Part shown: positions 2,930-53,568 of the stretch, piece after piece | Layout: the number at the start of each line of letters is the position of its first letter | Position numbering within the stretch: position 1 is the stretch's first letter | Assembly (NCBI RefSeq): GCF_037042905.1 | Contig: NC_087247.1 | Location: 11,354,148 to 11,418,147 of the forward strand | DNA from: Lytechinus pictus | Taxonomy: Eukaryota | Direction: 5' to 3' | Length of the DNA stretch: 64,000 bases | The notes under the pieces: model-generated | Database searches by the model: none | What the model was told of the DNA's origin: nothing | The model's input: the letters and a program-made list of their open reading frames with translations, nothing else | Program-made: the position numbers and the translations under genes

Positions 2930-3080
2930 GTAACGCCGTGGTGTTAACATCAGGGGCCCGTAACACAAAGGTTAGCAATGATTGTAGAACATTTTCCTAC
3001 GATTGATTGCATTGGCTACAATGTACAATCAATCGTGAAAACCAAGCGTACGATTAATCGCTAACCTTTATGTTACGGGA
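2930..3080. mobile_element. MITE GGGGCCCGTAACACAAAGGTTAGC...GCTAACCTTTATGTTACGGGACCC. Related copies lie at 8315-8400, 16545-16640 and 53315-53350.
   Basis: TIRs are readable. The internal CGATTGATTG...CAATCAATCG inverted core is shared among copies. Confidence 0.75.
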
Positions 3081-6000
3081 CCCAGATCTTCACGACATCC
3101 TGGAGATCAGAAAGGGGGATTACACTTTAACTCTACATTAATTTGAAATTCACTACACAACCACCATTTCTATATGGTTCACCCTTAATCTGTCATTTGT
3201 TGTTTATTCTTAGAAACATATCATATTACTGCGTACAGTATACTAGGCGATGATACGGGAGCAAGGGGTTTTGTTTATCATTCCAGTCTTCGAGTTGTTC
3301 TACATCTTCAGTAGATCGGGTTATAATCTACTGGAACAGCGAACGTTCTTACGGTGGAATTATTCTGGCAACATGAATATCAATGAAAAATGATAATAAA
3401 AAATGTATCGACTCTTTTTGGCCCCAATGTATTGAACACACTCTAGCTTTTCCCCTTGTTATGTTTTATTATCAGAAAGGTCATAATTTGCATTGTAATA
3501 CATATGCCTATAATAAAAGAAAACTTCAAAACGTGAAAGCAGGTTAAGATATCATTTATTAGAAACTTCAACGAATATGGGCTGGAAATAACCATATCAC
3601 TAAATATGTTTAAATGATGAATTCGCTCCTACTAGTTCTACATCTACGTTAGATCTGGATTATCAAAAGTAGCCATTGATAAGAGACTACCAAGATAAAT
3701 ATTTGAATGTTTTCATAATCTACATACAAGCCAATGGACGTGGTTTTCATAAAATAGTATGCGAGTTACGAATGATTTCACGCCAGACTGGTGACCCTTT
3801 CTTTTGCTAAACGATGCATCCAAGTGTGGCTCATTTAGCACCGAAGAACATGTTCCAGTCGTGCGTAAAGTCTTAAGTTAATTCTCGAAAAGCTTTATGG
3901 AACACCCAAAAGGTGTATATGTGTGAGTCATAACTGATGGATTATCTTTCCGTTATAATGCAAACCATTAAGTAAAAATAAATATGCAAGTTTGTGGTGA
4001 CCTGCCGGTTCAATCGGGTTTGCTGATATTATTTTTGACAAGGCAATATTTGGAAAATTTTAGACCAGTCCACCCCCAAACTCCCCCCCCCCCCAATAAT
4101 CAATATAGAAAATGGTCATAATTCCCTTCACCATTCCAAACTATACAGGCCTCTAGGCCTAATGAAACACATGTACAAGCTTCCAATCATCGCTTTCGAT
4201 CGCTTTATTGAAGAAATTACACCCCGTTTATAAATGTCTCCATCTCCCATATATAACTTTTAGATGAATACATGACTTGTGTGTAATTTTCATGATGAGA
4301 ATTTGAGAAGATGCTGGGCTCCAAGCGCTTGGATGACAATTTTGATCTGACACCGGAGTCGTGTTGGAAGTTCAGTCAAAATGGGACCTATGCGTGTAGA
4401 CCTAGGCCACGCGAGAAAAGCAGAAATAGATAGAGGGGACGGGCATTAGGGAGGACTAGAATGACATGGAGGAGAGAAGGAGAGAGTATCAATTATAGAA
4501 GCGATGGCATTAATAAAGGGAGAAGAAATTCAATTAGAAAATACAGCAGGATGGTGGATGGTGTCATAGCCGGGGGAGAAGTATATGTATACCACATTGT
4601 ACCAACACTTATGTTACTTTACAATTTGATTACAAAGTGATAAAAAAAATGTCCAGTTGAAATTTTTTTTGCAGTACTAAGTATAACATCACACCCATGA
4701 AAAACTACACAGAGCCCTTCTTTCGATCTGGACGTCAGGGGTTCGAGACCCCTTAATCAATCATGATGTAAAAGATCTTGACCTTCTGTCTTCAGGTTAA
4801 GAGCTTGGCATGTTGAAACAGATTATCATGATCTGGACTTACATCAGAGAGAGAGAGAGAAAAAAAAGAAATTATGCCCTGCAAAAACGACCATATAGAC
4901 TAATTTGAGATAATCAACGTGGCTACCGTAGAAAAAAACCTTAATAAACCATTATTATTCGCATAATTCTTTGCCCAATCATATTTTAATGTGTTGATAC
5001 CGTTGTAATAGATGAGCATGATATTGAGTCACTGGCGTACCTAGGATTTTCCAGAAGGGGGGCAAATTTTTTGGAGGATATTTCATACCACAAAAAAATT
5101 TGACAAGCAAAAAAAAAAAAAAGTCTTCAACCACAAAATAATAAAGGATTTCTTACCACAAAAAAATTTTAAGGAAAAAAAAAAGGTCTTCAGGTTCAAA
5201 AGACGTATTTTTTTTATCGCATTTCACATTACAAATTATCAGTTGTGACTCGTCAGGGGGGCAGGGATACGTCCCCTGCATGAGTTGTGACTCGTCAGGG
5301 GGCAGTCTACCCCCCCCCCCTTAGGTACGCTAGTGTATTGAGTCCTTTTTATGCTTTCAGAATTAAACATGAAATTTAGAAGACATCCAGTCTGATTAAT
5401 CTAACTGAGGAAATCCGTGATGCATAATACATGTCCTCATAACATAACTGTCATACCATTCTATTTTATTTGGATTCATTCAAATTGAGCGTCTTTTTTT
5501 TTTCTTTTTTCCTAGTGAGCAAATCAAAAATCTAGATATTATTCAATCTTCAAATTAGTTACGAATTTCGCCTATAAATCTAATAAACTTGAGCGTAATT
5601 TTTACAATCAGTCATGACATTAATTACATTAAAAAAAGACAAGTCTGCAGTCTCGTCTGCACTACGCAATTCATACATGTAGTGATACTGTAAATTCGAA
5701 ACTTTTCTCTCTTTTATTTAACATTTGAAAATATAATGCAATAATCCATGGCCACTATTATTGAAAATGTAAATTATTGGTGCCCACTAATGCTGTAATA
5801 AAGAAATGTTCACTAAAGAGGAAATTGCCAAGCCCTAATATTGAATTTAAGGCATGATTATCATTTGATATCTACGAGAAAACATGCATATACACTTGCA
5901 ACATATAAATGGCAGATATTCCTGTACACAATATTATGACAAGTTTCAATGAATAAGGAAATGAATGGCTATGGCCGTTTACTTTTAAAAGTTGTAATCA

Positions 6001-6106
6001 CCAAATACATAAAATAAAGTAATTACTACAAAATCCTTTACAAAACTAATGGTCATAATGTATGCAGTATAATGGAGTATGACCATGATATGTTGAAAAA
6101 TATGTG

Positions 6107-7233
6107 ACAAGTGGAACGCATCTGGCAGTCTCGCCTGTATTACGCGATCCAATTTAGCAGCAGTGCTGACTTTGAAAACAACTATCGAATTATTCACAAA
6201 AACACCATTCATATGATAATATAATATTATGTTCATTGACCCTAAATGACCTTTGACCTTGGTTATGTGACATGACACTCACTCTGCATATTCAGTGATA
6301 TATGATTGCTCTTATGTAAAAGTTTCATGAACTAGATCTATAAACTTTCATAGTTATGATAGCAATTCAACAAATAACCCTAACATGGCCAAAGTTTATT
6401 GAACCTAATAACTTTGACCTTTGCCATGTGATCATAATGTTCAGTGATATACCATTACCCTTATGTCCAAGTTTCATGAACTGGATTCCTAAACTCACGA
6501 CATTTCAAAAACTTAACCTCAGTTAAGATGTTGAATACCACAACATGATATGTTAATTGACTCTAAATGACCTTTGACCTTAGTCCTGTAACCTGAAACT
6601 CCGGCAGGATGTTCAGTAACACTTGATTAATCTTATGTCCAAGTTTCATGAACCAAGTCCGTAAACCTTTTATAGGACAAGTCCACCCCAACAAAAAAAT
6701 GATTTGAATAAGAAGAGAAAAATCCATCAAGCATAACACTAAAATTTTCATCAAAATCGGATGTAAAATAAGAAAGTTATGACATTTTAAAGTTTCGCTT
6801 AATTTCACCAAACAGTTTGTTTAATACTGTATGATTCAGTCAAGTCGGTCCCTATGGTCAAATCTGTAAAAAAATGAAATATTGTATAATTCAAACAATA
6901 AAAAACAAAAGAAAAAGTGAGTGATGGACATCATCGACAGACTAATTTGCATGTCACTGAGTTGTGCATATCACTGTTTTGTGAAAAATAAGCGAAACTT
7001 TAAAATGCCATAATTTTCTTATTTTACATCCGATTTTGATGAAATTTTCAGTGTTATGCTAGTTTGATATTTCTCTATTTATTCAAATCAAAATTTTGCT
7101 GGGGTGGACTTGACCTTTAAGTTATGATATTTCAAAAACTTAACCTTGGTTAAGATTTTAATGTTGACGGCGCCGCCGTCGCAAAAGCGGGGCCTATATA
7201 GTCTCGCTCTGCCATGCAGGCAGGACAAAAATG
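6107..7233 (+). mobile_element. TIR-bounded non-autonomous element carrying an internal satellite-like array. About 14-bp terminal inverted repeats GTCTCGCCTGCAT / ATGCAGGCGAGAC. Internal tandem ~140-170-bp units (..ttcattgaccctaaatgacctttgaccttggt.atgtgac.tgaaactc..). Copy E1 is full length and hosts the nested Harbinger-like MITE.
   Basis: The start ..acaagtggaacgcatctggcaGTCTCGCCTGtattacgcg and the end ..ggcctatatagtctcgctctgccATGCAGGCaGGACaaaaatg are shared by six loci. The internal units are visibly reiterated. Confidence 0.75.
6680..7117. mobile_element. ~440-bp MITE with ~130-bp terminal inverted repeats (GGACAAGTCCACCCCAACAAAAA...). It has a 3-bp TTA target-site duplication, so it is PIF/Harbinger-like. 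Present in duplication copy A only.
   Basis: Copy A reads ..aaacctttta[tagGGACAAGTCC....GGACTTGACCttta]agttatgat. Copy B at about 11375 reads ..aaaccttttaagttataatgat with no element. Related copies lie at 22375..22960 and partially at 28330..28510. Confidence 0.8.
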
Positions 7234-7320
7234 ACATTCTTGTGACACAGTCATGACTGTGTCTGTGTACACACACACACACACGCATTATTATTTTATT
7301 CATTTTCATTTTCTAACAAG

Positions 7321-7475
7321 TGCACATCTAGTTACCAATAATGCATATAGCATTTCCATTTATTTGAAAGCAGGATAAAAGAGCAATGTCTTGCCAACGG
7401 GCATAGGTGCCGCAGCCGGGGATCGAACCCCGGACTTTCCATGTATAGCCAGGCGCCTTAGACCACTCGGCCACG
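7321..7475 (-). mobile_element. tRNA-derived SINE or tRNA pseudogene. The class-II-like head is GGTGCCGTGGCCGAGTGGTCTAAGGCGCC..GGGGTTCGATCCCC..CGGCACC. The tail is ..ATGGAAATGCTATATGCATT. It is duplicated at 11620..11782.
   Basis: Acceptor-like 7-bp stems pair. The D-loop GCCGAGTGGTCTAAGGCG and T-loop GGTTCGATCC are present. I could not form an anticodon stem-loop, so I do not call it a functional tRNA. Confidence 0.5.
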
Positions 7476-9104
7476 GCACCTCCACATACCCACACACCCA
7501 TCCTTACCCACTCACTCCCAGCGTCATACACTTAAATAAATTTAAAAAAAGTGAGTCAATAAGTCAATGTATTATGCCAACGATAAATTATTCATTATTT
7601 TTCAGGGAACTCCTTCCTTCAGTGGGGCTTTTAAAAACGATTATCATATTATTTTTTATATAAAATATACATACATGTATGACCTTGTGGAAACCCAATT
7701 AGCCAACATCCTCTATGATGAAGAACATAAAACATGTAACGGTAAAAGTCGAGCTGGTAACTCAATCTTATCACAATTTCAAAGGATTTGGTTCCATTCG
7801 ACTATTACCAGGTCTTTGAATAATTTCTCCCAACGTCTCTACCAACATTTAAACATTAAAACAGTATCCAATTGCTGACGTCATAAATTAACTTGAGTCG
7901 ATGCAGTTGTGAGTGGATTTGAGGTGTGACAAAACGCACGTACTCCTATTTTAATTTTTATCTACTTGCACAGAAAAAAAAAGAAAAGAAAAACTTAGAC
8001 AAATAAGATTGGTAATGTAATGTGGCAATTAGTTCTGATTATCCCTTTATGATAGTGTTCAATAAAGGATTGACTAAATCTGAAAGACACATTTACAAGG
8101 AAGAGGTCCTATTGCAAATATAATTTCCCCTGCGACTCTTTTGCTGTACTGCACTGCAAAAACACCGGTGTTGATTCAACACCAGCCCGGTATCTAAATT
8201 GTCCACATCAGAGAAGTGTTAAGCAACACCTATTTGATTTTGGTCTAACACTAGATAGGGGTTTATTATACAACACCAATTAGTAAAAACAGCATCGGTT
8301 TGATTCCAAACTGGGTCCCGTAACACAAAGGTTAGCGATTAATCGTAAGCTTGATTTTTACGATTGATTGTACATTGTAGTCAATGGAATCAATCGTAGA
8401 AAAATGTTGGTAAATCGACACTGGAGTTTTTGCATTGTAATTCAAATATTACACCTCCTTTTTTTTGGGGGGGGGGGGGGTAAGGTTACAATATAATCAC
8501 AATGTCTGATTGTTGTGTTTCAGGTCAGTGAAATACCAACTTCTTTGACTTTGTTCCTCTCTCCGTCTGTTCCTCGTATGCCACGCACCCTCATCTAATT
8601 TATTTATAAATAATTGGTAAAATGATTTTTTTTAAATGCCTCTGTCATTGTATGTTTTATGTCTGTATAATCATATCCCGTTTTAAACTGAATGTCATTC
8701 AGCCATTCGGCTATTTTCAGTACATATTTTTTTTCACATAAATCATTGAATAAATAAATAATAAATGAATAAACCAAAATCGGAACATTTATCATCCCGG
8801 TCGAATTTGTCAAATTGACTATTACTGAGTACTTAGATTCGATCCTCTTATTTCAATTAATCATATTCAACAAAGTGATAAAAAAGATTTCCAGTTGAAT
8901 TTTTTTTGCAGTACTAAGTATAACATCACACCCATGAAAAACTACACAGAGCCCCTCTTTCGATCTGGACGTCAGGGGTTCGAGACCCCTTAATCAATCA
9001 TGATGTAAAAGATCTTGACCTTCTGTCTTCAAGTTAAGAGCTTGGCATGTTGAAACAGATTATTATGATCTGGACTTACGTCAGAGAGAGAGAGAGAGCG
9101 AAAA

Positions 9105-10570
9105 AATTATGCCCTGCAAAAACGACCATATAGACCAATTTGAGATAATCAACGTGGCTACCGTAGAAAAAAACCTTCATAAACCATTATTATTCACATA
9201 ATTCTTTGCCCAATCATATTGAGCATGATATTGAGTCACTGGCGTACCTAGGATTTTCCAGAAGGGGGGTAAATTTTTTGGAGGATATTTCATACCACAA
9301 AAAATTGACAAGCAAAAAAAAAAAAAAAGGTCTTCAACCACAAATAAAAGAATTTCGTACCACCAAAAAGAAAAAAAAAAGAAAAAAAAAGGTCTTCAAC
9401 CAAAAAAAGGATTTCTTACCACCAAAAAATTTGACAAGCAAAAAAGAAAAAAAAAAGGTCTTCAGGTTCAAATGACGTCTTTTTTTATTGCATATTTACA
9501 TTACAAATTATTAATTTGGCATCTCAAAATGGGGGGGGGGGGGGGCACGTCCCCTGTATCAGTTGTGACTCGTCAGGGGGGGCAGGGAAACGTCCCCTGC
9601 ATGATTTGTGACTCGTCAGGGGGGCAGTCTGCCCCCCCCCCTTAGGTCCGCTAGTGTATTGAGTCCTTTTTATGCTTTCAGAATTAAACATAAAATTTAG
9701 AAGACATCCAGTCTGATTAATCTAACTGAGGAAATCCGTGATGCATAATACATGTCCTCATAACATAACTGTCATACCATTCTATTTTATTTGGATTCAT
9801 TCAAATTGAGAGTCTTTTTTCCCAGTGAGCAAATCACAAATCTAGATATTATTCAATCTTCAAATTAGTTACGAATTTCGCCTATAAATCTAATAAACTT
9901 GAGCGTAATTTGTACAATCAGCCTTGACATTAATTACATTTAAAAAAAAAGACAAAAGTCTGCAGTCTCGTCTGCACTACGCAATTCATACATGTAGTGA
10001 TACTGTAAATTCGAAACTTTTCTCTCTTTTATTTAACATTTGAAAATATAATGCAATAATCCACGGCCACTATTATTCAAAATGTAAATTATTGGTGCCC
10101 ACTAATGCTGTAATAAAGAAATGTTCACTAAACAGGAAATTGCCAAGCCCTAATATTCAATATTAGGGCTTGGCAATTTCCTGTTTAGTGAACATTTTTT
10201 TTTTCTTTTTTGCTTGTCAAATTTTTTGGTGGTAAGAAATCCTTTTTTTGGTTGAAGACCTTTTTTTTTCTTTTTCTTTTCTTTTTGGTGGTACGAAATT
10301 CTTTTATTTGTGGTTGAAGACCTTTTTTTTTTTTTTTTGCTTGTCAATTTTTTGTGGTATGAAATATCCTCCAAAAAATTTACCCCCCTTCTGGAAAATC
10401 CTAGGTACGCCAGTGACTCAATATCATGCTCAATATGATTGGGCAAAGAATTATGTGAATAATAATGGTTTATGAAGGTTTTTTTCTACGGTAGCCACGT
10501 TGATTATCTCAAATTGGTCTATATGGTCGTAAATATTAAATGATAATCAGGCCTGATTATCATTTAATAT
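9105..10570. repeat. Fold-back inverted duplication in copy B. 10159..10520 is the reverse complement of about 9105..9455 plus 10100..10157. It is joined through a perfect 81-bp palindrome centred at 10158 and closed by a second perfect ~50-bp palindrome at 10521..10570.
   Basis: Identical peptide MPNHIEHDIESLAYLGFSRRGVNFLEDISYHKKLTSKKKKK appears in ORF 9206..9475 (+) and ORF 10150..10446 (-). 10118-10157 is the exact reverse complement of 10159-10198. cgtaaatattaaatgataatcagg|cctgattatcatttaatatttacg is a perfect palindrome. Confidence 0.85.
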
Positions 10571-10805
10571 TTACGAGAAAACATGCATATACACTTGCAA
10601 CATATAAATGGCAGATATTCCTGTACACAATTATGACAAGTTTCAATGAATAAGGAAATGAATGGCTATGGCCGTTTACTTTTTAAAGTTTAATCACCAA
10701 ATACATAAAATAAAGTAATTACTACAAGATCATTTACAAAACTAATGGTCATAATTTATGCAGTATAATGGAGTAGTATGACCATGATATGTTGAAAAAT
10801 ATGTG

Positions 10806-11491
10806 ACAAGTTGAACGCATCTGGCAGTCTCGCCTGCATTACGCGATCCAATTTAGCAGCAGTGCTGACTTTGAAAACAACTATCGAATTATTCACAAAA
10901 ACACCATTCATATGATAATATAATACTATGTTCATTGACCCTAAATGACCTTTTACCTTGGTTATGTGACACGATACTCACTCTGCATGTTCAGTGATAT
11001 ATGATTGCTCTTATGTCAAAGTGTCATGAACTAGATCTATAAACTTTCAAAGTTATGATAGGAATTCAACAAATAACCCTAACATGGCCAAAGTTCATTG
11101 AACCTAATGACCTTTGCCATGTGATCTTATGTTCAGATATATACCATTACCCTTGTGTCCAAGTTTAATGAACTGGATTCATAAAATTTCAAAGTTATGA
11201 CGACATTTCAAAAACTTAACTTCAGTTAAGATTTTGATGTTGATTCCTCGAACATGTTAATTGACCATAATTGTCATTCGACCTTGGTCATGTAACCTGA
11301 AACTCCGGCAGGATGTTCAGTAACACTTGATTAATCTTATATCCAAGTTTCATGAACCAAGTCCGTAAACCTTTTAAGTTATAATGATATTTCAAAAACT
11401 TAACCTTGGTTAAGATTTTAATGTTGACGGCGCGCCGTCGCAAAAGCGGGGCCTATATAGTCTCGATCTGCTATGCAGGCGAGACAAAAAT
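10806..11491 (+). mobile_element. Same TIR/satellite element family, copy E2. Paralogue of E1 in duplication copy B, without the nested MITE.
   Basis: Start ..ttgaacgcatctggcagtctcgcctgcattacgcg. End ..tagtctcgatctgctatgcaggcgagacaaaaatg. Confidence 0.75.
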
Positions 11492-11619
11492 GACATTCAT
11501 GTGTGTGTACAATTAAAAAAAAATGAAAATAATAATAATGTGTGTGTGTGCATACACACAAATTATTATCTTTATGATAATTTTTTTTAAACAAGTGCAC
11601 ATCTACATGTAGTTACCAA

Positions 11620-11782
11620 TAATGCATATAGCATTTCCATTTACAGTATTTGAAAGCAGGATAAAAGAGCATTGTTGATTACGTGCCTTGCTCATGGACA
11701 TAGGTGCCGCGGCCGGGGATCGAACCCCGGACTTTCCATGTATAGCTAGGCGCCTTAGACCACTCGGCCACGGCACCTCCAC
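11620..11782 (-). mobile_element. Paralogous copy of the 7321-7475 tRNA-like SINE, within duplication copy B.
   Basis: Near-identical sequence ..ggtgccgcggccggggatcgaaccccggactttccatgtatagctaggcgccttagaccactcggccacggcacctcc. Confidence 0.5.
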
Positions 11783-12558
11783 ATAATCAGACACCCACCC
11801 TTACCCACTCACTCCCACCGTCATACACTTAAATAAATAAAATGAAAAAAATGAAAGTCAATAAGTCAATGTATTTATGCCAACGATCATTTATTCATTA
11901 TTTTTCAGGGGACTCCTTTCTGCATTGGGGCTTTTAAAAACGATGATTATATAATTTTTATATAAAATATACCCATGACTTTGTGGAAACCCAATTAGCC
12001 AGCTTCCTCTAGAATGAAGAACATAAAACATGTAACGGTAAAAGTCGAGCTGGTAACTCAATCTTATCACAATTTCAAAGGATTTGGTTCCATTCGACTA
12101 TTACCAGGTCTTTGAATAATTTCTCCCGTCTCTACCAACATTTAAACATTAAAACAGTATCCAATTGCTGACGTCATAAGTGAACTTGAGTGGATGTAGT
12201 GGTAGACTTGAGCGGATTTGAGGAGTGACAAAACCGCACGTACTCCTATTTTGATTTTTATCTACTTGCACTAAAAAAAGACAGAAAAGAAAACTTAGAC
12301 AAATAAGATTGGTAATGTAATGTGGCAATTAGTTCTGATTATCCCTTTATGATAGTGTTCAATAAAGGATTGACTAAATCTGAAAGACACATTTACAAGG
12401 AAGAGGTCCTATTGCAAATATTTCCCCTGCGACTCTATTGGTGTACTACACTGCAAAAACACCGGTGTTGATTCAACACCAGCGCGGTATCTAAATTGTC
12501 CACATCAGAGAAGTGTTAAGCAACACCTATTTGATTTTGGTCTAACACTAGATAGGGG

Positions 12559-12792
12559 TCTAAGTTCATTGACCCTAAATGACCTTGGTCATGTGACATG
12601 AAACTCATGCAGGATGTTCAGTGATACTTGATTAACCTTATGGCCAAGTTTCATGAACTAGGTCCATATACTTTCTAAGTTATGCTGTCATTTCAAAAAC
12701 TTAACATTCGGTTAAGATTTGGTGTTGACGCCGCCGCCGTCGGAAAAGCGACGCCTATAGTCTCACTCTGCTATGCAGGTGAGACAAAAATG
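12559..12792 (+). mobile_element. Same family, copy E3: 5'-truncated, with one internal unit plus the 3' terminus.
   Basis: ..gttcattgaccctaaatgaccttggtcatgtgacatgaaactc...gttgacgccgccgccgtcggaaaagcgacgcctatagtctcactctgctatgcaggtgagacaaaaatg. Confidence 0.7.
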
Positions 12793-16046: not shown

Positions 16047-16639
16047 AGGGACATGATGGAGTTCAACGAGATTTCTTGTGTTTCCTGCAACGGAAGAGAA
16101 ATAAAGAGACAGAGACAGAGATATAGAGATATTAATAATGATATCTATATGATTTAAAATAATATTCAATACGCTAAATTATGATCATGTTGTTGTTGGG
16201 TGTTAACACCTTGTATCTCAAAATTTAAAATAATTTAGGACAGCTTAGAAGATGCTTGCTTTTAGAATGATAAACCTAGCTACCTCTTTTGCCAAGAAAA
16301 GAGTTCTCTCTAGAAATTAGGAGACCCTTTTTCACACATTATGAGGCTGCCACCATTACAATATTTCTAAAAGAACATCTCTTCTGAGCTACTCTCAAGC
16401 TATTCAAATCTTAAGATACGAGGTTTTAAAATGCCAGCAATGATGCATTTAATATAAAATAATACAACAATTAAGTACTGCTAATTATTACCTCAGCTTT
16501 AGCACCCTCATAGGGCACTCAAGTATTCAAAGAATTCCATCATACCTGGGTCCCGTAATGAAAAGGTTAGCGATTAATCATATGCTTAAATTTCACGATT
16601 GATTGTACACTGTAGTCAATGCAATTGACCCCCTTCTCT

Positions 16640-16932
16640 CTCTTAACCTTGGTTACGATTTCGATATTGATTCCCCCAACATGGTCTAAGTTCATTGACC
16701 CTAAATGACCTTTGACCTTAGTCATGTGACCTGAAACTCAGGCAGGATGTTCAGTAATACTTGATTACCCTTATGTCCAAGTTTCATGAACTAGGTCCAT
16801 ATATACTTTCTAAGTTATGAGGACATTTCAAAAACTTTAACCTTGGTTAAGATTTCAATGTTGACGACACCGCCGCCGCCGTCGGAAAATCGGCGCCTGT
16901 AGTCTCGCTCTGCTATGCAGGCGAGACAAAAA
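16640..16932 (+). mobile_element. Same family, copy E4: 5'-truncated, abutting a MITE at 16545-16640.
   Basis: ..catggtctaagttcattgaccctaaatgacctttgacc...gtcggaaaatcggcgcctgtagtctcgctctgctatgcaggcgagacaaaaag. Confidence 0.7.
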
Positions 16933-22960: not shown

Positions 22961-23168
22961 GGTAAGATGTGAACCTTGAAACTAATTGAAAGCATGTATA
23001 AAAACGAAACACTAATGAAACAGATCAATAAAAAATTGGGTGAACAATAAGGACATACATGTAACAAGCATTTATATGCCAAAAATGCAAATGCTATGGA
23101 CCCAAGAAGAATATCACAAATAGATAACTTTCCCCTATGATGGGGCAAATTACCCAAAAGCGTTAATT

Positions 23169-23803
23169 TTTGTCTCGCCTGCATAGCAGAGCGAGACTAT
23201 AGGCGCCACTTCTCTATGACGGCAGCGGCATCAACATTGAGATCTTTTGTGAAATTTTTGAAATGTCTTCATAACTTAGAAAGTATATGAACCTAGTTCA
23301 TGAAATTTTGGGTCTTCAATTAACAAGGAATTTCCTGCCTGAGTTTCAGGTCACATGGCCAAGATCAAAGGTCATTTAGGCTTAGGGTCAACTTAGACCA
23401 TGTTGGGTAAATAAACATCAAATCTTAACCAAGATTAAGTTTTTGAAATGTCATCATAACTTTGAAAGTTTATCATTCATGGATCGAGATCATGAAACAT
23501 AGACATACACTGTAAGAGCAATCAAGTATCAGTTAACATCCTGCCTGAGTTTCAGGTCACATGACCAAGGTCAAAGCTCATTTAAGGTCAATGAACTTTG
23601 GCCATGGCATGTTGGGGTATTTTTTGAATTGCCATTATAACTTTGAAAGTTTATGGATCCTTTTCATGAAACGTTACGGCCTTAGTATCACTGATCGTTT
23701 AGCACTAGTCTTAGGTCACATGATCAAGGTCAAATTCGGCATTGCTGCTATAATGAATCGAATGATGCAGGCAAGACTACCAGAGGAGTTCCACTTGTTT
23801 ACT
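23169..23803 (-). mobile_element. Same family, copy E5 in inverted orientation.
   Basis: 23169 tttttgtctcgcctgcatagcagagcgagactataggcgcc is the reverse complement of the 3' terminus. 23770-23803 ..gcaggcaagactaccagaggagttccacttgt is the reverse complement of the 5' terminus. Internal units lie between. Confidence 0.7.
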
Positions 23804-42231: not shown

Positions 42232-42915
42232 CCTACATTTGGTCCTGTGGTCAGCGGATCTTCAATCAATTTTAGTCTTTGTTCCACCCCCTCCCCGATA
42301 CCTCCCAAATCCTCATTACAATTGATCTTACCCTTGTTTCTACATCCGTCCATTCACCGCTGTACTGCTCAGGGGGGCGTTTCATGAAAGGACTTGTCGG
42401 ACGTTTTATCTGACAAGTCCCATTTTATCCAACAGTTACCATAGGAACAGTGCCTCTCAGCCAATCAAAATCATGGAAAGATGTCAGATCTGACAACTTG
42501 TCGGATGAAAATATTGATGAAACGCTCCCCTGGGTCATCTTCAACCCTCCGTTTGGTCCTCATGATGGCTGTGGTCAGTGGATCTTCGGTTAATCATGGC
42601 CCTTGTGCCACCCCCTCCCAAACCCATCCCCAATCCCCATTACAATTTATTTTACCCTTGTTTCTACATCCGTCCATTCACCGCTGTACTGCTCAGGGTC
42701 GTCTTCAACCCTAAGTTTGGTCCTCATGGCGGATGTGGTCAGCGGATCTTCAATCAATCTTGCTCTTTGTGCCACCCCCTCCCCGATACCTCCCCAATCC
42801 ACATTACAATTTATCTTACCCTTGTTTCTACATCCGTCCATTCACCGCTGTACTGCTCGGGGTCGTCTTCAACCCTCCGTTTGGTCCTCGTGGTCGTCAG
42901 TGGATCTTCGGACTT
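42232..42915 (-). repeat. Tandem array of about four ~161-bp units. Each unit is a copy of the 3' ~100 bp of the KIF23 terminal coding exon, including the TAA stop, plus ~60 bp of 3' flank. One unit is interrupted by a MITE.
   Basis: Direct repeats of ..tctacatccgtccattcaccgctgtactgctc(a/g)ggg tcgtcttcaaccct..ggtcctc(a/g)tgg..gtcag(c/t)ggatcttc.. at about 42232-42357, 42536-42697, 42698-42858 and 42859-42915. Minus-strand ORF 42647..42841 repeats ..RVEDDPEQYSGEWTDVETRVK*. Confidence 0.85.
42358..42535. mobile_element. MITE inserted inside one unit of the KIF23 3' tandem array. TIR GGGG(G)CGTTTCATGAAAG ... CATCAATGAAACGCTCCCC.
   Basis: Terminal inverted repeats are visible. The insertion interrupts the otherwise collinear repeat unit between ..gctcaggg and gggtcatcttcaaccc... 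It is related to the copy at about 13600-13700. Confidence 0.7.
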
Positions 42916-43853: not shown

Positions 43854-44240
43854 CTGTTCAATCAAAACAAGAAATGCATGCAATGTTATATCACCAAGCA
43901 CAGAAAACAGCAACTGGAGCTAAAGCTGCAACAATACTAATGACGCTACAAAGGGAAAACTTGGACAGTTAATAGATCGTGGAGTGATATGTTTGGGTAG
44001 GGTACCCACAAAGCGCTGGGTAGCTACAAGTATATACACATACTGTCATTCGAGCTATCCACATTCAAATTTTTCATGTAAAATAATGTTTTTTCTTTTT
44101 CATCGTGACATGCTTCTTGAGGCACTACTGAAGAATTCTGAACTATACGTGACTGGATTTATGGAAAGTACTTGCACCCGTTTACAATTGACTTTCTTGA
44201 ATTTTCATTTTGAGATATTCGAAATTACTTCTCCACCTAC

Positions 44241-44520
44241 CTGTGTCCAGGGTCTCAATGGGTTGGTGATCGATCCAGATGCTGTTGGAGGCTGACCGCG
44301 ATCGACGATGTCGCAGCCTGACCGGTGGTGGGTTGGTCTTCCTCTGCGGAGGCGGTGACTTGGATCGATTGAAGCTCTCGGCCAGCACCTCCTTGGCTGC
44401 TTTCTTGGCGCTCTCCTCCTCCTCGTGGCCCTGGACGATCTCCTTCAGCTGGCGAAGCTTCTCCTCCCGGACCCACATCTCCGTCTGCATCTTCATCTCC
44501 GTCTGGCGGACCCTCTTCGC
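44241..44520 (-). CDS. KIF23: KIF23 exon: [93 protein letters not shown](+1 nt).
   Basis: Acceptor catgattgtag|GCGAAG; donor GACACAG|gtaggtgg. Matches human [22 protein letters not shown], the basic RRSRS motif region of MKLP1. Confidence 0.85.
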
Positions 44521-44794
44521 CTACAATCATGTGTAGATGAAGGAAAGTGGTTTAAGAGCCTCTATAAAACTTTGGTAAAAGTTCAATAATGTGAGATATA
44601 TTCCAGTATCATCTTACGTATAGTGTTGTGGCTGAGTGGATGAGTCTCTGGACTTAGAACCACATGGTCCGGGGTCGATTCTGAGTGGATAAGTCTCTGG
44701 ACTTAGAACCATATGGTCCAGGGTCGATTCTGAGTGGATAAGTCTCTGGTCCACCAAGGCACTAACATACTTAATCTGCATTTGCCACAATCCA

Positions 44795-44950
44795 TCCAGG
44801 GGTCCGTTGCAGAAAGAGTTGCGTTTAAACGCAAGTCAAAAAATCAATCGCAAGTCAAAAATGCGCGCTATTGATTGGTTGAAAATCAAGTTGCGCATGA
44901 TTTTTAGAGTTGCGTTTGATTGCAACTCTTTCTGCAACGGACCCCCAGGT
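44795..44950. mobile_element. Intronic MITE GGGGTCCGTTGCAGAAAGAGTTGCG...CGCAACTCTTTCTGCAACGGACCCCC. Related GGGG..GTTTCA(C/T)AAAGAG elements lie at 45895-46050, 46068-46310, 52575-52765 and 53885-54110.
   Basis: Perfect ~27-bp TIRs. The other intronic copies share the ttgcaat.gatcgcaa / ttgcgat.aattgcaa internal cores. Confidence 0.7.
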
Positions 44951-46546
44951 GTAGTAAATTGCAGTTAAATCGCAAAATACATCCACTTGTATACATTCTA
45001 CATTTACTTTTAGGATAGACACTTTCATGTAATGTAATAATAAACTGGTAGATTGCTCAACACCTTTTTGAGAATTACCTAATCTCAAGAGAGGCTTTTA
45101 AGCTAAACTCAAGTATCTGTAGTGTGCAGTGAAGTCTTTAAAATCAAGGTTAAGTTTTATCACGATATCATCATGGCTCTAGATCAAGTAAGTTCCCATC
45201 TAGTTTGCACATGAAATATTGAAATGAATATCGAAATCTAGGCAGGAAATGAAGTATGCTGAAAATTGCCATCAGATGTAAGCTCACAGGGGGTCTGTAG
45301 TACTTTCTCAAAGAAAAACAAAGCATAACATGTGTATTCCAGTAAAATTTCATGCTTATCTTAGGAATTATGGAGCACTCAATTACCCCTATTCTATCAA
45401 AGTTATTTAGCACATAATTGAATTGAATTTATTGAATTTCCACAATCGAAATAAAAGTGTACAAAGTAAGCATTTTATAATGCAGTGGAGGAGATAACAA
45501 AAGTAAAATTACTTATCTAGGTTATCCCCTTACAAAACAACAAGTACACATAAAACATATAAAATTATACATTTCAATGTAATACAGCAAAAAAATCACT
45601 AAGTAAATAATTTACAATTAAACATAATCATGTATATACTCACACAAACACACACACACACCCACGCACACACTTACACTTTATACACATGCAGGAAAAT
45701 CCTATCTCTTATCGCGCTGTAACAAAAAGTGCCTATATCTCCTTTTGAATGAGTTCAATGTTGGTTTTTCTCTTATAATTACTTCAATATTGTTCCAAAT
45801 TTCTGGACCTTTAAAGAAAATAGAAAATTTTGAGCTGTTTGTTCTTGTTTGGGGAAAATGATAATTTTTTTAATTATACAAAGCACTCTGGTAAAGGACC
45901 TGGGCCCCGTTCATAAAAAGATGCTATGATAGTAACTCTTGCTGGAATGTCAAATTTCGTTGGAAGAGCCAATCAGGAAACAGAATTTTCACTGTTGTCA
46001 TGGGAGTTGACATTCTAGCTATCATAGCAACTCTTCATGAAATAGGGCCCTAGAGGGGTGTTTCACAAAGAGTTAAATATGACTTAGAGGGTGTTGCATG
46101 AAAATATTTGCAATCGATTGCAAATATTCTGCTGCAATTTTACAATTGATAGATCAAGTTTTAGCAAATCAGATTGCTCTGCTCGTTTCAAGGAGCTGAT
46201 TAGATATCAATTGCAAATTTGCAATTAATCGCAAGACATTATGATTGATTTAGGGACCAAAAATAGACTTGTATTTGATCGCAAGTTTCTTGCAACGCCC
46301 CATTGAACTCATGGTTAAATGCTGACACACATTCTGTGTACCAATCTTAATGATTGGTACGAAGTAGCGCACATCCTAACTACGAATGTAAGTTTGACTT
46401 TTAATCACATTTAAAATCTTTGTGAAACATTCCCCTTGGTAAACTGTACATTTTCTTTTTCATTGCAAAATAGAGATGTCTTACAGATATATCAGTACAT
46501 TTACTCTCATATCCTCCATTGAAAATTGATGACCAGCTAATACTCA

Positions 46547-46658
46547 CACACTCCTTTTCCCATTTATCTCTCTGGTTACTGACGGCTCCCTTGAGGGCTT
46601 GCTTCAGACGAGCTCTTTCCTGCGTTTCCATCTGGATCATTTTTTGCTTCTCAGAAAG
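46547..46658 (-). CDS. KIF23: KIF23 exon: LSEKQKMIQMETQERARLKQALKGAVSNQRDKWEKEC. Coordinates are +/-1; my hand count and the ORF track disagree by 1 nt here.
   Basis: Acceptor atatttcag|CTTTCT; donor GAGTGT|gtgagtat. Matches human ..TETTMKWEKEC. Confidence 0.75.
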
Positions 46659-46699
46659 CTGAAATATGACAATTAAAAAGAAATTATATATATATATAT

Positions 46700-48150
46700 T
46701 TTTTTTTTTTTTGCAGGATTTTCTGCATTTATTGGAATATATACAAAACAAATTTACAATGCTTGAGACATAATCATAATATAGCATAAAGTACATAACC
46801 AAGTGACAATCTTATATGTAGTGACTGGAGAAAGACATAAATACAATATATAAAAAATATATATAATAAGTAAAATGCAGAGGCAAACTATATAAGCAAA
46901 TATATGCTTGAAGCATAGCAGCCAAAAAAGGGAAGGGCTACATGGAGACCTAAGAAATTAATTGTGTCTGTAAGAAAAAAAAAATTAATGTCACGAATCA
47001 TCAAATAACGGGGAAAAAAGTAGAAATTGACAAATGAAGTGTGTGCTAGTGAGTGCTAGTGGGTGCAAGTGCAGGTGAGAGATTTATGAATATCTGGATA
47101 AAATATATTTTTTCAATGAAGCTTTAAAAGAAAAGACAGATGCAGTGAGTTTAATATGATTTGGTATGTTGTTCCATATATCTGGGCCGTGGTGTCTAAT
47201 TGTTTTCTGTGCTAAAATTATTTTCGGGTTTGTCAAATGAAAGTCTGATGAGTGACGTGTAGGATATGAATGAATGTCGCTATTGTAGGTAAACATGTTT
47301 TGAAAGGATGTAGGTATAGCATTGGTTGAGAATTTGTACATAAAAATGGCAGATTGTAAAGTATGGATATCGTTCATTTTCAACGTTTTGAGTTTCCGAA
47401 AAATGGGATCAGAGTGAGCTAAATATTGCGAATGGGTGCAAATACGGAGTGCCTTTTTTTGAAGGCGCAGAATTGAATCTATTTTTGTTTTATTGCTATT
47501 ACCCCACAATATATTGCAATATGAAATATGTGATAAATATGTGACAACATAAATAGTGATCTTTGGGAAAGACAATATTTGAGTTTATATAATATACCAA
47601 TACCTCTGGCAACTAGTGTGCTAACATTATGAATGTGGCTGTTCCAAGTTAAATTAGAATCGATTATTACCCCTAAAAATTTTGTATCTTGTTTTTCAAT
47701 GAGACTGATGTTATTAATTTGAATGGAACCACGAAATGTATGTTTAGAATTAAGGTGTTTAAAGTATATGAAATTTGTTTTGTTAATGTTTAACAAAACA
47801 ATTTGATACATACGCAAGTGATCTTTGTCTTTTTTCTAAGTTTCTCCTAGAATATAAATATAGGGAGATTCATGCTGCAGTAAATACATGTTGGCGTTTT
47901 CATGATAATGGGTGTGATGCTTTTCTTCTCGTTTAGCATTCCCGGATGAATAAAGGTTAAAGGTCACAAGATCAATCGCAGGATATCCCTGATATGTGAT
48001 ATCATAACATTGATAACTAGATTGATTCATGACTGCGGACAGTTTATGCCCCTGCCATTGCCAGCCTGAGAATGTATTACACACTTTTAATAACTGTTCA
48101 AATACTCCAATTGGAGTATTCAAGCATTGAGCAGCTACGTCACTCATGCA
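46700..48150 (-). mobile_element. 5'-truncated non-LTR retrotransposon (CR1/L2-like LINE): RT C-terminal fragment plus 3' tail, in the KIF23 intron between the 48.6 kb and 46.6 kb exons.
   Basis: Minus-strand ORFs 47479..47817 and 47084..47575 carry LINE RT C-terminal signatures. These include LGVIIDSNLTWNSHI, ..YCNILWGNSNKTKIDSILRLQKKALRICT..AHSDPIFRKLKTLKM, and a CR1-like ..FKASLKKYILSRYS* end. An A-rich tail follows at about 46700-46716 on the minus strand. Confidence 0.7.
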
Positions 48151-48646
48151 TACCTGCCAACCTTTGATAATAGAAATTCAGTATCAAAGCTACGAGAGCA
48201 CGGTGCCCCAGAGTGGGGGGGGGGGGAGAATTTTGAAATCACAATTAGAAATGTGTATTAGATATTGCACATGATGATAATGGCGCTGGCCCCCTAAATT
48301 TGTTTACTCGCCGGCAACAACCTGGCTTTGTCCTTTTTTCTGTACCACATGTATGCAAAAACAAAACAAATGAAGGGTTGGCAATCGCTATGAGCTCTGT
48401 TAGACGATATGCACTAGTGTTGCATAACCGTGTGCTCCAGCTGATTAATACTTCGTTATGAGTTAGTTTCATACTATTCAGAATTCAGAATTGGAGTTCA
48501 AAAATCAGAAAAATTACGCCCAAATGGGAATAGTTGGCAGATATGCTCATAGAATTACACCACAGTGAATTCAGGGGCTTAAATTTTGTATGACTGTATC
48601 CTATATGACAGATTAAAAAAAAATAAAAACCCCAATATGCTCTCAC

Positions 48647-48855
48647 CTCTGTAGCCATCTCTCGTTTGTCTTTCTCGTACATGTTGTGAGTGCGTTGCAG
48701 CATGGCGTTGTCCTGTTCCAGAGAACGGATGCGTTTCTCGTTCCGCTCATTTTCGCGGGTCTTAGAGTTCAGTTTGGCTGAAAGCTCTGAGACGGTGGTG
48801 CGGAGATGATCCAACTCGTGCTCTCTTTCAACCAGCATTGCCCGGAAAGCGCCCT
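48647..48855 (-). CDS. KIF23: KIF23 exon: (Q)GAFRAMLVEREHELDHLRTTVSELSAKLNSKTRENERNEKRIRSLEQDNAMLQRTHNMYEKDKREMATE. Coiled-coil stalk.
   Basis: Acceptor ttttacacacag|AGGGCG; donor TACAGAG|gtgagagc. Heptad-rich E/K/R/L composition. Matches the ORF-track entry 48485..48838. Confidence 0.8.
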
Positions 48856-49520
48856 CTGTGTGTAAAACGAGACAATATGAGGATGTTGGTAAGTAGAGTA
48901 AGTATGAGCCTTAGACAAAATATACTCATATTATTTGATGGTTTCATTCATATTTTATACTTGCAGATTCATTACATTATGAAAAATTAGAAAAAAAAAA
49001 AGAAAAAAGAATTTATAACTTGAGGTTCTAATATAATAGTAATAAAATTGGGGAATTATTTGCAGTATTCTTATTTCAATAATTCTACTTGGCAATATCA
49101 TAGGAAAGTTTAAATATATCTTTACTTATCTAAATTTTTCAGTTTTTGGTGACAGTGAATGTCTGAAGTATTTCTTTATTTCAATGGTCCAATGGTCTCC
49201 ACTGAAAAAAAAAATCTGTCAAAACAACTCTCATACGACTCAGGCCTAATATCAACATTATGACATATATAGCCTTCACTCTCCCAGAAGTAAAAGTAAC
49301 ATACAGTCAAAAGTGACTATCATGGCCACCCAGGAGAAACAGAATAGCGGCCATCGGCGACAGGTGGACTCTATAGACAAGGTTCTATTAAAAAACACAA
49401 ACACACATTTCTTCCAAATGTGAGACAATTTTGGTTGCCATTGAAGACAGATTTTCACTACAGACAGGTGACCACTAAGCAAGTTTGACTGCACATCAAT
49501 GGATAACAGTTTCTTCTTAC

Positions 49521-49623
49521 GTTTTCTTGCGAGTTCGTCCTCCATGGTTCTCCTCCTTTTCTGTCTCTCCGCCAAGAAGGCAATAAGATTGGATAAGGTG
49601 TCCTCATCCGATGGATCGGAAAT
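49521..49623 (-). CDS. KIF23: KIF23 exon: ISDPSDEDTLSNLIAFLAERQKRRRTMEDELARK(+1 nt).
   Basis: Acceptor attctag|ATTTCC; donor GAAAAC|gtaagaag. Collinear with human [28 protein letters not shown]. Confidence 0.75.
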
Positions 49624-50817
49624 CTAGAATGGGACAGACAATAATAATGAAATGCAACACTTATCATACTTAATACAATGTAAATTATGATTCTAAGCAC
49701 TGTTCACTATTACCCTGGCAATATCCTAGTTATAAGCCTGATCTCACTGGTTTTAAGAAATTTAAGGGTAATTAGTGTTATTCATATATTTTAATGGTTA
49801 AGGTAATTCACCTTATTGTTGCTCTTTTCTCTGTAGGATTTCAATAGATTAAAGGAGAATGAAACCCTTGAAACCAGCTGAATCCATATCATAGAGAAAA
49901 ATCAAAGAAACATATTGTTGGAAGTTTGAGGAAGATTGAATGAATAATAAGAAAGTTATGAGCATTTGAATATTGAGATCACTAATGCCATGTAGATCCT
50001 CCCATTGGCAATGCGACCAAGATCTGTGATGTCACACACGTACAACTCCCTTATTACTTTAGTACTTATTTCACCTATATTCTCACTTTTATAGAGTCTA
50101 ACACAAGGTTAGGTGTTCTCTTTATGAGAGGACAAGTACAGAGGTTTCACAACATTATATCATTGATGAATCGTTTGTCATATGATTAGAATGAGCAAAA
50201 AGAGATGTTTTGGGGTATATTTTCAGTGTCCAAAAGGGGAGAGTTGTTCATCTGTGATATCATAGATCTTGGTCGCATTGCCAATGGGAGGATCTCCATA
50301 GCATTAGTGATCTCGACATTCAAATGCTCATAACTCTTCTATTGCTAGTCCTATTTTACTCAAACTTTTGTTGATCTTATTCTTTGATTTTTCTGCTTTC
50401 ACAAAAGCTAACTTGCTTCAAGAGTTTCATTCTCCTTTAATATTTACATCCATCTCATTAGTTTAATTATCAATGATTGCTAAGTTTAATTTCATGAAAG
50501 TATATGCTGGGTCATTTTCCTGGTGCACTCTAGGTTAATGTTTTATAGTCAATTTCTCCAGGGTGCCTGGATACTCTCCTCTTTTCCTCCTCCTTTTCGG
50601 TTCTTTCTCAAGTGCACTACGGGAATGACCTTGTAATGCCCAATGTTTTATACTCTTTATTGTTTAATTTCTCATGATTCTTCTGATAGGTAATTCATGT
50701 TCATTTCAGTTTGTACTGCTAGACATGTTCTTTTCAATAAAATCCATTTTATCTATCTTATTTAATGTTTCTAATGTTTTTTTTAAATCAAATATTCCAA
50801 AATAAAAACGAACGAAC

Positions 50818-50915
50818 CTGTAAGAGTGGAAACGGTGGTCCAAGGGAGAGAAGTGGGGATGGAGGTGGCAGATCACCACCGTTCTCCTCAAGAAGTTTCT
50901 TATATTCTTCATTGG
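50818..50915 (-). CDS. KIF23: KIF23 exon: (G/A)NEEYKKLLEENGGDLPPPSPLLSLGPPFPLLQ.
   Basis: Acceptor tttcttgcag|CCAATG; donor CTTACAG|gttcgtt, a weaker GTTCGT donor. The frame is fixed by the flanking exons. Confidence 0.65.
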
Positions 50916-51359
50916 CTGCAAGAAAAATAGAAAATGCAATATTTAATGAGAATTAAAGATAACTTGACTTTTGATGGGGGGTTAATTTGTCAGCTAAACA
51001 AATTTCCGATCATCTTAACCATGTCAACAATTTTATTTTGCGTAACCAGAAGAACTGATTTGCATTTTATTATATTCTTTCTCTTAGTAGTACTGACTAA
51101 GATATATACTCTCTTGTGAATTGAAAACCCTCAAACTACTCAGAATAAATTTAAAAAAGCTGAAGCACGTTGAAAAGACTAAAATTGAAAGAGCTCCCAT
51201 GGCTTTTGTACAGACGGAAGCTAAAATAAAGCTGGAATTAAGCTGAAAATAAAAAAGCGAAATAGCTGAAATCTCACTCCTCAGATAGTCTATCATAGTC
51301 AAGCACTCCACTTCAAAATCAACAAAGTTTCTGATAATCTTAAATGTATATGCACTCAC

Positions 51360-51456
51360 CCTTTCTCCTGCCTGGGGTAAGACCGATGTCAAATCTGACC
51401 TCTGTTGGTCTCGCTACTTGTACTTCCTGCGTGATCTCTGCAAACCTCATAACATG
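51360..51456 (-). CDS. KIF23: KIF23 exon: HVMRFAEITQEVQVARPTEVRFDIGLTPGRRK(+1 nt). Neck linker.
   Basis: Acceptor cttcaaacag|CATGTT; donor AGAAAGG|gtgagtgc. Matches human LQVMRFAEVTQEVEVARP..GLTPGRR. Confidence 0.85.
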
Positions 51457-52338
51457 CTGTTTGAAGCAAAAACAAGACCAAAGCTTCATCAGTAATCAAC
51501 CATTCATATTCATCATAGAACTTTCAACTGTATTTTCCGAATGCAGACAATCGCAGTCAACGGCAACAAAGAACAAAAAGTTAAATACAACTAAATACAA
51601 GTTTAATACGCAGAAGCCTTGTGTCCTAGCTCAGCAGTTGGATTTTTTTGTCCAAGTATTCGCAACTGAATGCAACTAAATCCAAATGAGCAAAGACGAG
51701 TGGTAATGACAGTGGCAACGACAAATTCGAGCAAGGACACGCAAGGATGCGAAACAAGTAACAGCAAGCATCTCATGCAGGGTAACAGTGTTACTGCTCA
51801 ATTTACCTTGCCTTAGCTTGCATCACCTCGCTACGCCGAGTGCAACTCTATCGAGTTGGTACGCAAAAAAGGAAGTGCAATCAAATATAATGCGGAGAAT
51901 GCTGTGTAAAACTGCATCTTGTTGCTTTCTGTTTGCAAAGCAATACTAGTAAGTAGCTTAAAATGCAAAGGTGTGAGCCAATCCTACAGGGGATTATTCT
52001 TCAGTCATTGTCAAATTATGCTTGGTATTGAACTAGGTAGTAATTGGAGGGCTCTTTCGTAACAAGGATTATCTGAAAAGGGGGATGATCAAGGATAAAA
52101 ATCTGAAAACTATTTGGTTTATATTCCGTTGTAGCGGTGCAAGAATGCCCTCAGCAAAACATTTTCGTGCACCACATCCGTAAAGAAACGCCTTTACATA
52201 TTGCACTTATGTGCGTTGCCAAGGGCGTTTTTGTGCGCATGTGATACAAAAAATTGTGGTTATAAGGGCGTTCTTGCACTGACACGATTTACATATACAC
52301 GCAAATTAAGCTATATCGGAGATTATACCAAAACTTAC

Positions 52339-52458
52339 AGTGGTTTCATCATAGTCCTTTGCACTGGGGTTGACACACACCACCATACGGACTTTACCCT
52401 CACCGTCAAAGTAGTTCTTGAAAAGATGGGTGAGTTTGGACGTTCTGTAAGGGACCAT
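52339..52458 (-). CDS. KIF23: KIF23 exon: [40 protein letters not shown].
   Basis: Acceptor cttttccacag|ATGGTC; donor ACCACT|gtaagtttt. Near-identical to human [31 protein letters not shown]. Confidence 0.9.
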
Positions 52459-52831
52459 CTGTGGAAAAGAAACATCATTTCATTACCAGTGAGCAGCGAT
52501 TGACAATAGATTAACTCTGTTCCGATTCAGTCTTTGTGTTTTGTTATTAGAGGTAACAGAGAATTACGGAATGTTGAAAGTCCTTCAAATCAAAATTAAT
52601 TGCAATTAATTACAAATTTGCAATAGATCGCAAGTCTCCTTTTTCTATCAACAGGTATATATCGATTTGCTTTGATTGAACATCGACCTATCATTGGAAA
52701 ATTTGCATCCGAAATTTGCAATTGATAGCAAAAATTTTCTTGCAATGCAACACCCCCAAAGTCGCAACCTTGAACAACTCCAACCCAGATCAAGAGAAGA
52801 TCCATCAGATTCTGAGACAGTTTCAACTGAC

Positions 52832-53446: not shown

Positions 53447-53568
53447 CTGTATGACCTCCTGGCCCAGTGAGTCTAGGGGTGCCTGGACCAGTCTGATATT
53501 GAAGACACTGTGGCTACGACTTGACTCTGTGTTCAGCTGGGTGTGAGCAACCTTACGCCTGGCCTGAC
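53447..53568 (-). CDS. KIF23: KIF23 exon: (G)[40 protein letters not shown]. Contains switch I.
   Basis: Acceptor ttaacacaacag|GTCAGG; donor CATACAG|gtaagac. The SSRSH switch I motif is present. Matches human [21 protein letters not shown]. Confidence 0.9.

Follow-up and report, generated by a model that had tools for sequence, protein, structure and literature searches.

Six loci in a 64-kb window form one family of probable non-autonomous Helentrons carrying a ~163-bp tandem repeat

Six loci in the window (the whole 64-kb stretch of DNA analysed) were found to make up one repeat family, which we assign with good confidence to the non-autonomous Helentron-type transposons (HINEs) and which carries ~163-bp tandem repeats as cargo; dependence on a Rep/helicase is likely by analogy with described members of this class. 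HINE is the current name for elements that were earlier called pearl or DTC84-type 'tandem-repeat-containing MITEs' in molluscs and DINE-1-like elements in insects. The anatomy of the copies, their presence at five independent sites, the lack of coding capacity and the lack of target-site duplications (TSDs) were observed directly. The family works like a HINE and very probably is one, and we hold this status short of proven because a 3' stem-loop was the one defining feature tested that the copies did not show. Elements of this kind are already well described; the family is an ordinary one for an animal genome, does not represent a new kind of element and involves no new principle.

The window is AT-rich (33-41% G+C) and without long ORFs, indicating eukaryotic DNA. 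It contains a KIF23/MKLP1-like gene as well as a fragment of a non-LTR reverse transcriptase (RT), and one copy of the repeat family lies within an intron of the kinesin gene. The earlier note on this DNA had listed six loci with a shared 3' end. A motif scan for this end (End B, ..TAGTCTCGCTCTGCTATGCAGGCGAGAC followed by AAAAA) gave six occurrences in the window with no more than 3 mismatches, where none were expected by chance, confirming the claim. These were at 7199-7226, 11458-11485, 12758-12785, 16900-16927, 23172-23199 (minus strand) and 59025-59052. When the best copy (57878-59062) was compared to the window by BLAST, the same six loci were recovered and nothing else. The opposite end (End A, the 5' end in the orientation of the earlier note) was common to four of the six loci only. 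It matched with at most one mismatch at 6123, 10822 and 57893 and a degraded fourth form was present on the minus strand at 23765-23798. End A was missing from the loci at 12.56 and 16.64 kb, as the earlier description of copies as truncated had implied. The copies differed from each other by ~10-25% and the family is therefore not very young.

The count of six copies held for loci and had to be lowered to five for independent insertions. The copies at 6.1 kb (c6, 6107-7231, minus strand) and 10.8 kb (c10, 10806-11490, minus strand) sit in one tandem segmental duplication (4632-8265 vs 8870-12562, 86-96% identity) and share their flanks, making c10 a paralogue of c6 and not a separate insertion. 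Both have both ends and three units, and in c6 the subterminal inverted repeats (subTIRs) are mutated. The region 6107-7233, which had been taken as one element, does correspond to c6, with the exception of 6673-7117. This internal segment is an unrelated nested MITE with inverted arms of 143 nt (6670-6812 and 6978-7120) and is absent from c10. Two further copies, c12 (12557-12790) and c16 (16642-16932), both on the minus strand, are truncated. The copy at 23 kb (c23, 23167-23798) is the only one on the plus strand, has both ends and ~2.5 units and is the most diverged; its 3' subTIR (23765-23777) has one mismatch. The best-preserved copy, c57 (57877-59057, minus strand), is full length at 1181 bp. 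The practical value lies in repeat annotation, where all six loci should be masked under a single HINE name and two of them treated as a segmental duplicate.

The boundaries of the elements were set by aligning the ends of the copies together with their flanks. On the minus strand, which is the Helentron convention, c57 reads as five T, the 5' subTIR, a short complementary inverted repeat (IR), a (GGC)n microsatellite, five units and a vestige, a spacer, the 3' subTIR and the terminus ..CCACTTGT. The end that carries the T run, the 13-nt inverted repeat, its fold-back partner and the short microsatellite is the one shared by all six loci. In c57, with all features on the minus strand, the T run forms the 5' terminus (59053-59057, A5 on the plus strand) and in six of six copies it is exactly five bases long. 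It is followed by the 13-nt 5' subTIR GTCTCGCCTGCAT (59040-59052), by AGCAGA and by the IR GCGAGAC (59027-59033), which lies six nt downstream of the subTIR and pairs with its first seven nt. The microsatellite (58992-59010), which reads (GGC)n in this direction and (GCC)n on the plus strand, begins ~20 nt beyond this hairpin and differs in length between copies. Downstream of it is a segment with the palindrome TTAACC..GGTTAA and then the tandem array (58082-58984), in which four 163-bp A-type units are followed by one 192-bp B-type unit on the microsatellite side. At the far end a spacer and a degenerate unit precede the 3' subTIR ATGCAGGCGAGAC (57898-57910), complementary to the 5' 13-mer at every position, and a further 21 nt lead to the terminus, past which the three independent full-length copies diverge. 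The 13-nt inverted repeat, which had been proposed as a 13-14-bp TIR formed by the extremities, was perfect in c10 and c57.

The order of subTIR, IR, microsatellite, repeats and T run agrees with the Helentron convention only if the strand used earlier is exchanged for the other, and the earlier orientation was rejected as the functional one. This reversal also applies to the hairpin that had been placed at the 3' end. The hairpin itself was real, with fold energies of -11.4 and -13.8 kcal/mol in intact copies (z = -3.2 and -6.2 vs dinucleotide shuffles) and base pairs retained in 5 to 6 of 6 copies. As the element reads on the opposite strand, this '3' hairpin' is the 5' subTIR folding on the IR. 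In the 12.7-kb copy a G-C pair of the hairpin is replaced by A-U, with one change on each arm; these are both CpG transitions and therefore only weak evidence of selection. At the 3' end of this reading, no convincing stem-loop was detected downstream of the 3' subTIR. The final 21 nt (TGCCAGAGGCGTTCCACTTGT) contain just a 3-bp GCC/GGC stem in c57, which is broken in c6, c10 and c23, and the fold energies of the right flank were no better than those of shuffles (z = +0.4, +0.8 and -0.4).

Internal units were counted by a profile search using a profile built from 15 unit cores, and c6, c10, c12, c16, c23 and c57 contained 3, 3, 1, 1, ~2.5 and 5 units plus a vestige, respectively. This matched the earlier estimate of one to six units, and the period was corrected from 140-170 bp to 163 or 192 bp (Tandem Repeats Finder). 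All 18 profile matches with E < 1e-3 in the 64-kb window fell inside the six elements, the lone exception outside being a 23-nt vestige at 53.6 kb with E = 0.0095. The units had a fixed orientation in all copies and an identical junction with the microsatellite in every copy. Two forms were told apart by their linker. The A linker is 56 nt long and gives the 163-bp period, while the B linker is 65-92 nt long, gives the 192-bp period and repeats part of the 5' module including the palindrome. Every multi-unit copy had one B-type unit adjoining the 5' module with the A-type units after it. In the 12.7-, 16.8- and 58.9-kb copies the units adjoining the 5' module shared 94-96% identity; the figure fell to 61-90% for distal units and for the more diverged 6/10-kb and 23-kb copies. 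The earlier proposal of a non-autonomous, Helitron-superfamily-like family with a short satellite-like array as cargo was supported. Termini and units co-occur without exception in the window. A 164-bp tandem repeat at 42.5 kb was also considered as a second HINE family and was rejected, as it has no such end modules.

Neither the copies nor the rest of the window offered a candidate for an autonomous partner. No Rep/helicase domain was found in the window's 28 ORFs of at least 95 aa, and the ORFs overlapping the copies were all short (110 aa at most) with no Pfam match. A search for protein relatives using 526 aa of concatenated stop-free element translations returned nothing at E <= 1. Exact-pattern scans with the 26-nt hairpin of the 5' module and with 23-nt and 32-nt satellite cores gave no matches in metagenome, viral and genome contig collections. 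ENA and Logan contigs of related but distinct organisms were matched by the RT fragment or the KIF23 exons (~71-80% nucleotide identity), and none of these contigs carried the element family. The subTIR and unit motifs likewise had no relevant match in papers and searchable supplements.

Cut-and-paste MITEs have symmetric terminal inverted repeats and a fixed-length TSD, and a reading of this kind was the historical one for pearl and DTC84. Here a DDE transposase would recognise the 13-nt inverted repeats and generate a 2-bp TT/AA TSD. There are indeed inverted repeats near both ends. The 5' junction was N|TTTTT in all six copies, T's precede that end, and the base right after ..CCACTTG was T in three of three independent full-length copies and TT in two of the three; the conserved AA was taken as a TSD in the older literature (PMC3879986). 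However, one repeat lies 5 nt inside the 5' end and the other 21 nt inside the 3' end, an asymmetric placement, and the c6/c10 site is TC and not TT. Comparison of the flanks of full-length and truncated copies yielded no direct repeat longer than in random sequence pairs, which means that the TSDs suggested earlier as a check were not present above chance. In addition, elements of this architecture are now classed with the Helentrons on the grounds that autonomous Helentrons carry the same termini, and C. gigas empty sites lack a TSD (PMC4067079, PMC7492417). We therefore consider cut-and-paste transposition improbable.

A retroposon origin appeared less probable again, to the point of being very unlikely. 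SINEs and related retroposons typically have a Pol III-type head, a variable A-rich or microsatellite tail and TSDs of variable length. Under this explanation a LINE reverse transcriptase would recognise the terminal hairpin and the short A-run, and the truncated copies would be products of 5' truncation. In the orientation of the earlier note the element does end in the hairpin and AAAAA, both truncated copies retain that end and a non-LTR RT fragment is present in the window. Against this, the A-run is fixed at five bases in six of six copies instead of being variable, neither full-length nor truncated copies are flanked by TSDs, the 13-nt inverted repeat links both ends, no Rfam family matched, and the element has no tRNA, 5S or 7SL head.

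The truncated copies also bear on this point. It had been noted that such copies always keep the 3' end, and both did keep the same end, which is the 5' module. In c12 the 5' module (T5, subTIR, IR and microsatellite) and one unit remain, and the truncated end is within 5 bp of the right boundary of the segmental duplication. The sequence beyond c12 is not homologous to that beyond the paralogous boundary, and this combination points to rearrangement after insertion rather than to truncation by reverse transcription. In c16 the 5' module, one unit and part of a B-type linker remain, and the truncation falls precisely on the linker palindrome CTTAACCTTGGTTA, with another short repeat 16 bp away. 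With only two truncated cases, no conclusion was drawn on truncation linked to transposition. One speculative reading, to which we give little credence, is that the family has dispensed with the 3' stem-loop and that the linker palindrome (TTAACC-NN-GGTTAA) may serve as an alternative, premature rolling-circle terminator, yielding copies like c16 with a 5' module and one unit. If true, this would provide a concrete route for Helentron transposition to seed single satellite monomers at new sites.

Foldback elements consist largely of terminal inverted arms, which are long and often repetitive internally. Such an element, or an independent satellite lying beside unrelated conserved sequences or spread by segmental duplication, would accommodate the long inverted arms within 6107-7233 and the two of six copies that are segmental duplication products, yet it can be set aside as highly improbable because the long arms belong to the nested MITE missing from c10, the inverted repeat of the family itself spans no more than 13 nt, flanks are unrelated in the remaining four copies and the window's units lie inside elements in one orientation and with the same microsatellite junction. 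The earlier suggestion of a foldback-like family was not supported. Even taken together, the MITE, retroposon and satellite or foldback explanations are unlikely.

Under the preferred assignment to the HINEs, the Rep/helicase (with endonuclease) of a Helentron located elsewhere in the genome would act in trans to mobilise the copies. By analogy, transposition would proceed by a rolling-circle mechanism into T-rich (TT) sites without duplication of the target. The tandem array would travel as cargo and its unit number may change by unequal exchange or replication slippage within the element, with the expected result that short satellite-like arrays become dispersed through gene-rich DNA. The TT target, insertion without TSD and Helentron dependence are argued from analogy, as the window contained no Rep/helicase ORF and, by chimeric flank queries of its 64 kb, no empty site, and the searches gave no related DNA or named-family match. 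Elements of this kind are documented carriers that scatter short satellite-like arrays in the euchromatin of bivalves, insects and other invertebrates, and they tie transposons to the birth of satellite DNA. To these the window adds another family in which the architecture is cleanly displayed, the unit variants follow a set order and one copy sits in an intron of a KIF23-like gene.

Most of the features that define HINEs were found in this family. There is a pair of subTIRs within the 11-15 nt range, one near the 5' terminus and the other tens of nt from the 3' terminus, and a short IR complementary to the 5' subTIR lies 6 nt downstream of it, within the 1-22 nt seen in elements of the DINE-1 and Cg_HINE type. 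A microsatellite is present at the inner end of the 5' module together with repeats of the 100-200-bp class in fixed orientation, and the element has no coding capacity. Members of the class also insert into TT or T-rich sites without a TSD, have T strings at their boundaries and share their termini with an autonomous Helentron of the same genome that encodes Rep/helicase (with APE endonuclease). On these points the copies showed T5 at the 5' junction in six of six, a T after ..CCACTTG in three of three independent full-length copies and no TSD above chance, and the window contained no empty site and no Rep/helicase domain in its 28 ORFs. What the family did not show is a palindrome or stem-loop in the stretch from the 3' subTIR to the 3' terminus. 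A 3' stem-loop downstream of the 3' subTIR has been reported in all Cg_HINEs, in DINE-1 and in the mite HINEs (PMC7492417, PMC4067079).

The earlier note had described the family as Helitron-like or foldback-like, and Helitron was right at the level of the superfamily, with Helentron/HINE as the matching class and not the canonical Helitron. Canonical Helitrons are marked by a 5' TC, a 3' CTRR, a hairpin ~11 nt from the 3' end and insertion between A and T. The family resembles them in its asymmetric ends, a hairpin near one end, the absence of TSDs and the capture or carriage of foreign or tandem sequence. It differs in having no 5' TC, 3' CTRR or A|T target and in possessing subterminal IRs, which are absent from canonical Helitrons. 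The ends of the element are TTTTTGTC.. and ..CACTTGT, or ACAAG.. and ..GACAAAAA on the other strand. The A|T insertion preference that had been suggested as a check was not seen, as the junction bases were T|T-compatible, and a canonical Helitron was rejected on these grounds.

The pearl elements of Crassostrea virginica (CvA, CvE and CvG) and DTC84 of Donax trunculus have the same modular order when the family is read in the orientation of the earlier note. In the published scheme an L module with a subterminal IR is followed by core repeats, a microsatellite and an R module with a terminal IR, and then AA, with the core-repeat variants of DTC84 in fixed order (PMC3879986). Pearl has since been re-categorised as a non-autonomous Helentron (PMC7492417). 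Shared with these systems are arrays of up to ~5-6 core repeats, the fixed order of variants and truncation of the array on the L side with a constant microsatellite junction (PMC3879986). A palindrome near the repeat junctions is also shared, and the likeness is one of layout. The microsatellite is ACGG-like in DTC84 and CvG, in contrast to GCC/GGC here, and the palindrome is TTGTCCGGACAA there vs TTAACC..GGTTAA here.

The DINE-1 (INE-1) elements of Drosophila and the mite HINE-Mo were also compared. In DINE-1 and the mite HINEs (Thomas et al. 2014) the subTIRs are 12-15 bp long, the 5' one lying 2-4 nt from its terminus and the 3' one tens of nt from its own, strings of T lie at the boundaries, the target is TT and the termini are common with autonomous Helentron partners (PMC4067079). 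DINE-1 and HINE-Mo differ in a defined 3' stem-loop, which lies 8-35 bp from the terminus, and in autonomous partners that have been identified (PMC4067079), neither of which was seen for the family in the window. The points of agreement are 13-bp subTIRs, an IR near the 5' subTIR, a microsatellite and optional central tandem repeats, along with boundary T strings, a non-coding sequence and high copy number (PMC4067079).

The Cg_HINEs of Crassostrea gigas (Vojvoda Zeljko et al. 2020) have a left flank with a 5' subTIR of 11-12 bp, a complementary IR of 7-12 bp at a distance of 1-12 bp and a short variable microsatellite, a centre formed by a short array of 140-180-bp satellite-like repeats in a single orientation, and a right flank with the 3' subTIR and then a palindrome (PMC7492417). 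They insert at T-rich (TT) sites without a TSD, and empty sites in C. gigas show none (PMC7492417). The family described here is unlike them in having no clear palindrome after the 3' subTIR and a trinucleotide (GGC)n microsatellite instead of the commoner GTCY type; its motifs were absent from the searchable supplements, and the likeness shown is one of layout. It shares with them the left flank of 5' subTIR, nearby complementary IR and short variable microsatellite and the 3' subTIR of the right flank. The units of ~160-180 bp, usually 2-5 per array and in one orientation, are also alike, as are the T-rich junctions without TSDs and the dispersal of the copies in introns and euchromatin.

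A KIF23/MKLP1-like mitotic kinesin was identified as the host gene on the minus strand at window positions ~44180-61311. Its motor-domain exons were located at 61311-61206 and 60597-60461 (both minus strand) and its SSRSH exon near 53.5 kb and its DLAGSE exon near 52.97 kb (also minus strand), and a match to MKLP1_Arf_bdg was detected in the ORF at 44182-44496. A full-length copy of the HINE (non-autonomous Helentron) family at 57877-59057 is intronic in this gene. An intronic stretch directly upstream of a kinesin exon was found at 53584-53606 (minus strand), where 23 nt resemble the best-conserved part of the HINE unit (AATGACCTTTGACCTT) with a profile E of 0.0095; this stretch represents a relic or has arisen by chance. 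At 47084-47817 on the minus strand, a non-LTR retrotransposon ORF is represented by its C-terminal fragment. Relatives of this fragment showed 42-78% amino acid identity and came mostly from ENA metagenome assemblies, with one cluster in Logan. All three fetched contigs carrying such relatives belong to assembly ERZ26222911, which evidently includes DNA from a related animal.

Further repeats were observed in the window. In the interval 42370-42893, an array called at 42532-42893 holds 2.2 copies of a 164-bp tandem repeat (87% identity) that bears no relation to the units of the HINE family. Directly upstream of this array, 42370-42532 is occupied by a small MITE whose TIR is CAGGGGGGCGTTTCATGAA. 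Three copies of a ~100-bp repeat were found at 2988-3085, 8311-8408 and 16546-16625 with 87-93% identity, and a gap of 16 bp separates one of them from the point where the HINE copy at 16642-16932 is truncated.

Comparison of 4632-8265 to 8870-12562 revealed a tandem segmental duplication of ~3.6 kb with an identity of 86-96%, and ~600 bp of unrelated sequence separates the two copies. The right boundary of the duplication coincides with the truncated end of the HINE copy at 12557-12790. The second copy of the duplication contains a 1.4-kb structure (9122-10530) with inverted arms of 339 nt that are 99% identical (9122-9459 versus 10530-10192), and the first copy contains only a single arm-like segment at 4887-5192. 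A recent inverted duplication and a long-TIR element are both possible readings of this structure.

On the downstream side, the 6.1-kb HINE copy is adjoined by a tRNA-like sequence (7408-7480, minus strand) that scored 22.5 bits against the Rfam tRNA model, where the gathering score is 29. ARAGORN called no tRNA at this position, and the sequence probably represents either the head of a tRNA-derived SINE or a pseudogene. The same HINE copy carries a foldback-type MITE at 6673-7117, with arms (6670-6812 and 6978-7120) of 143 nt each and a complementarity of 86%. The 10.8-kb paralogue does not carry this MITE and represents the empty site, and comparison of the two copies revealed a PIF/Harbinger-like 3-bp TTA target-site duplication.
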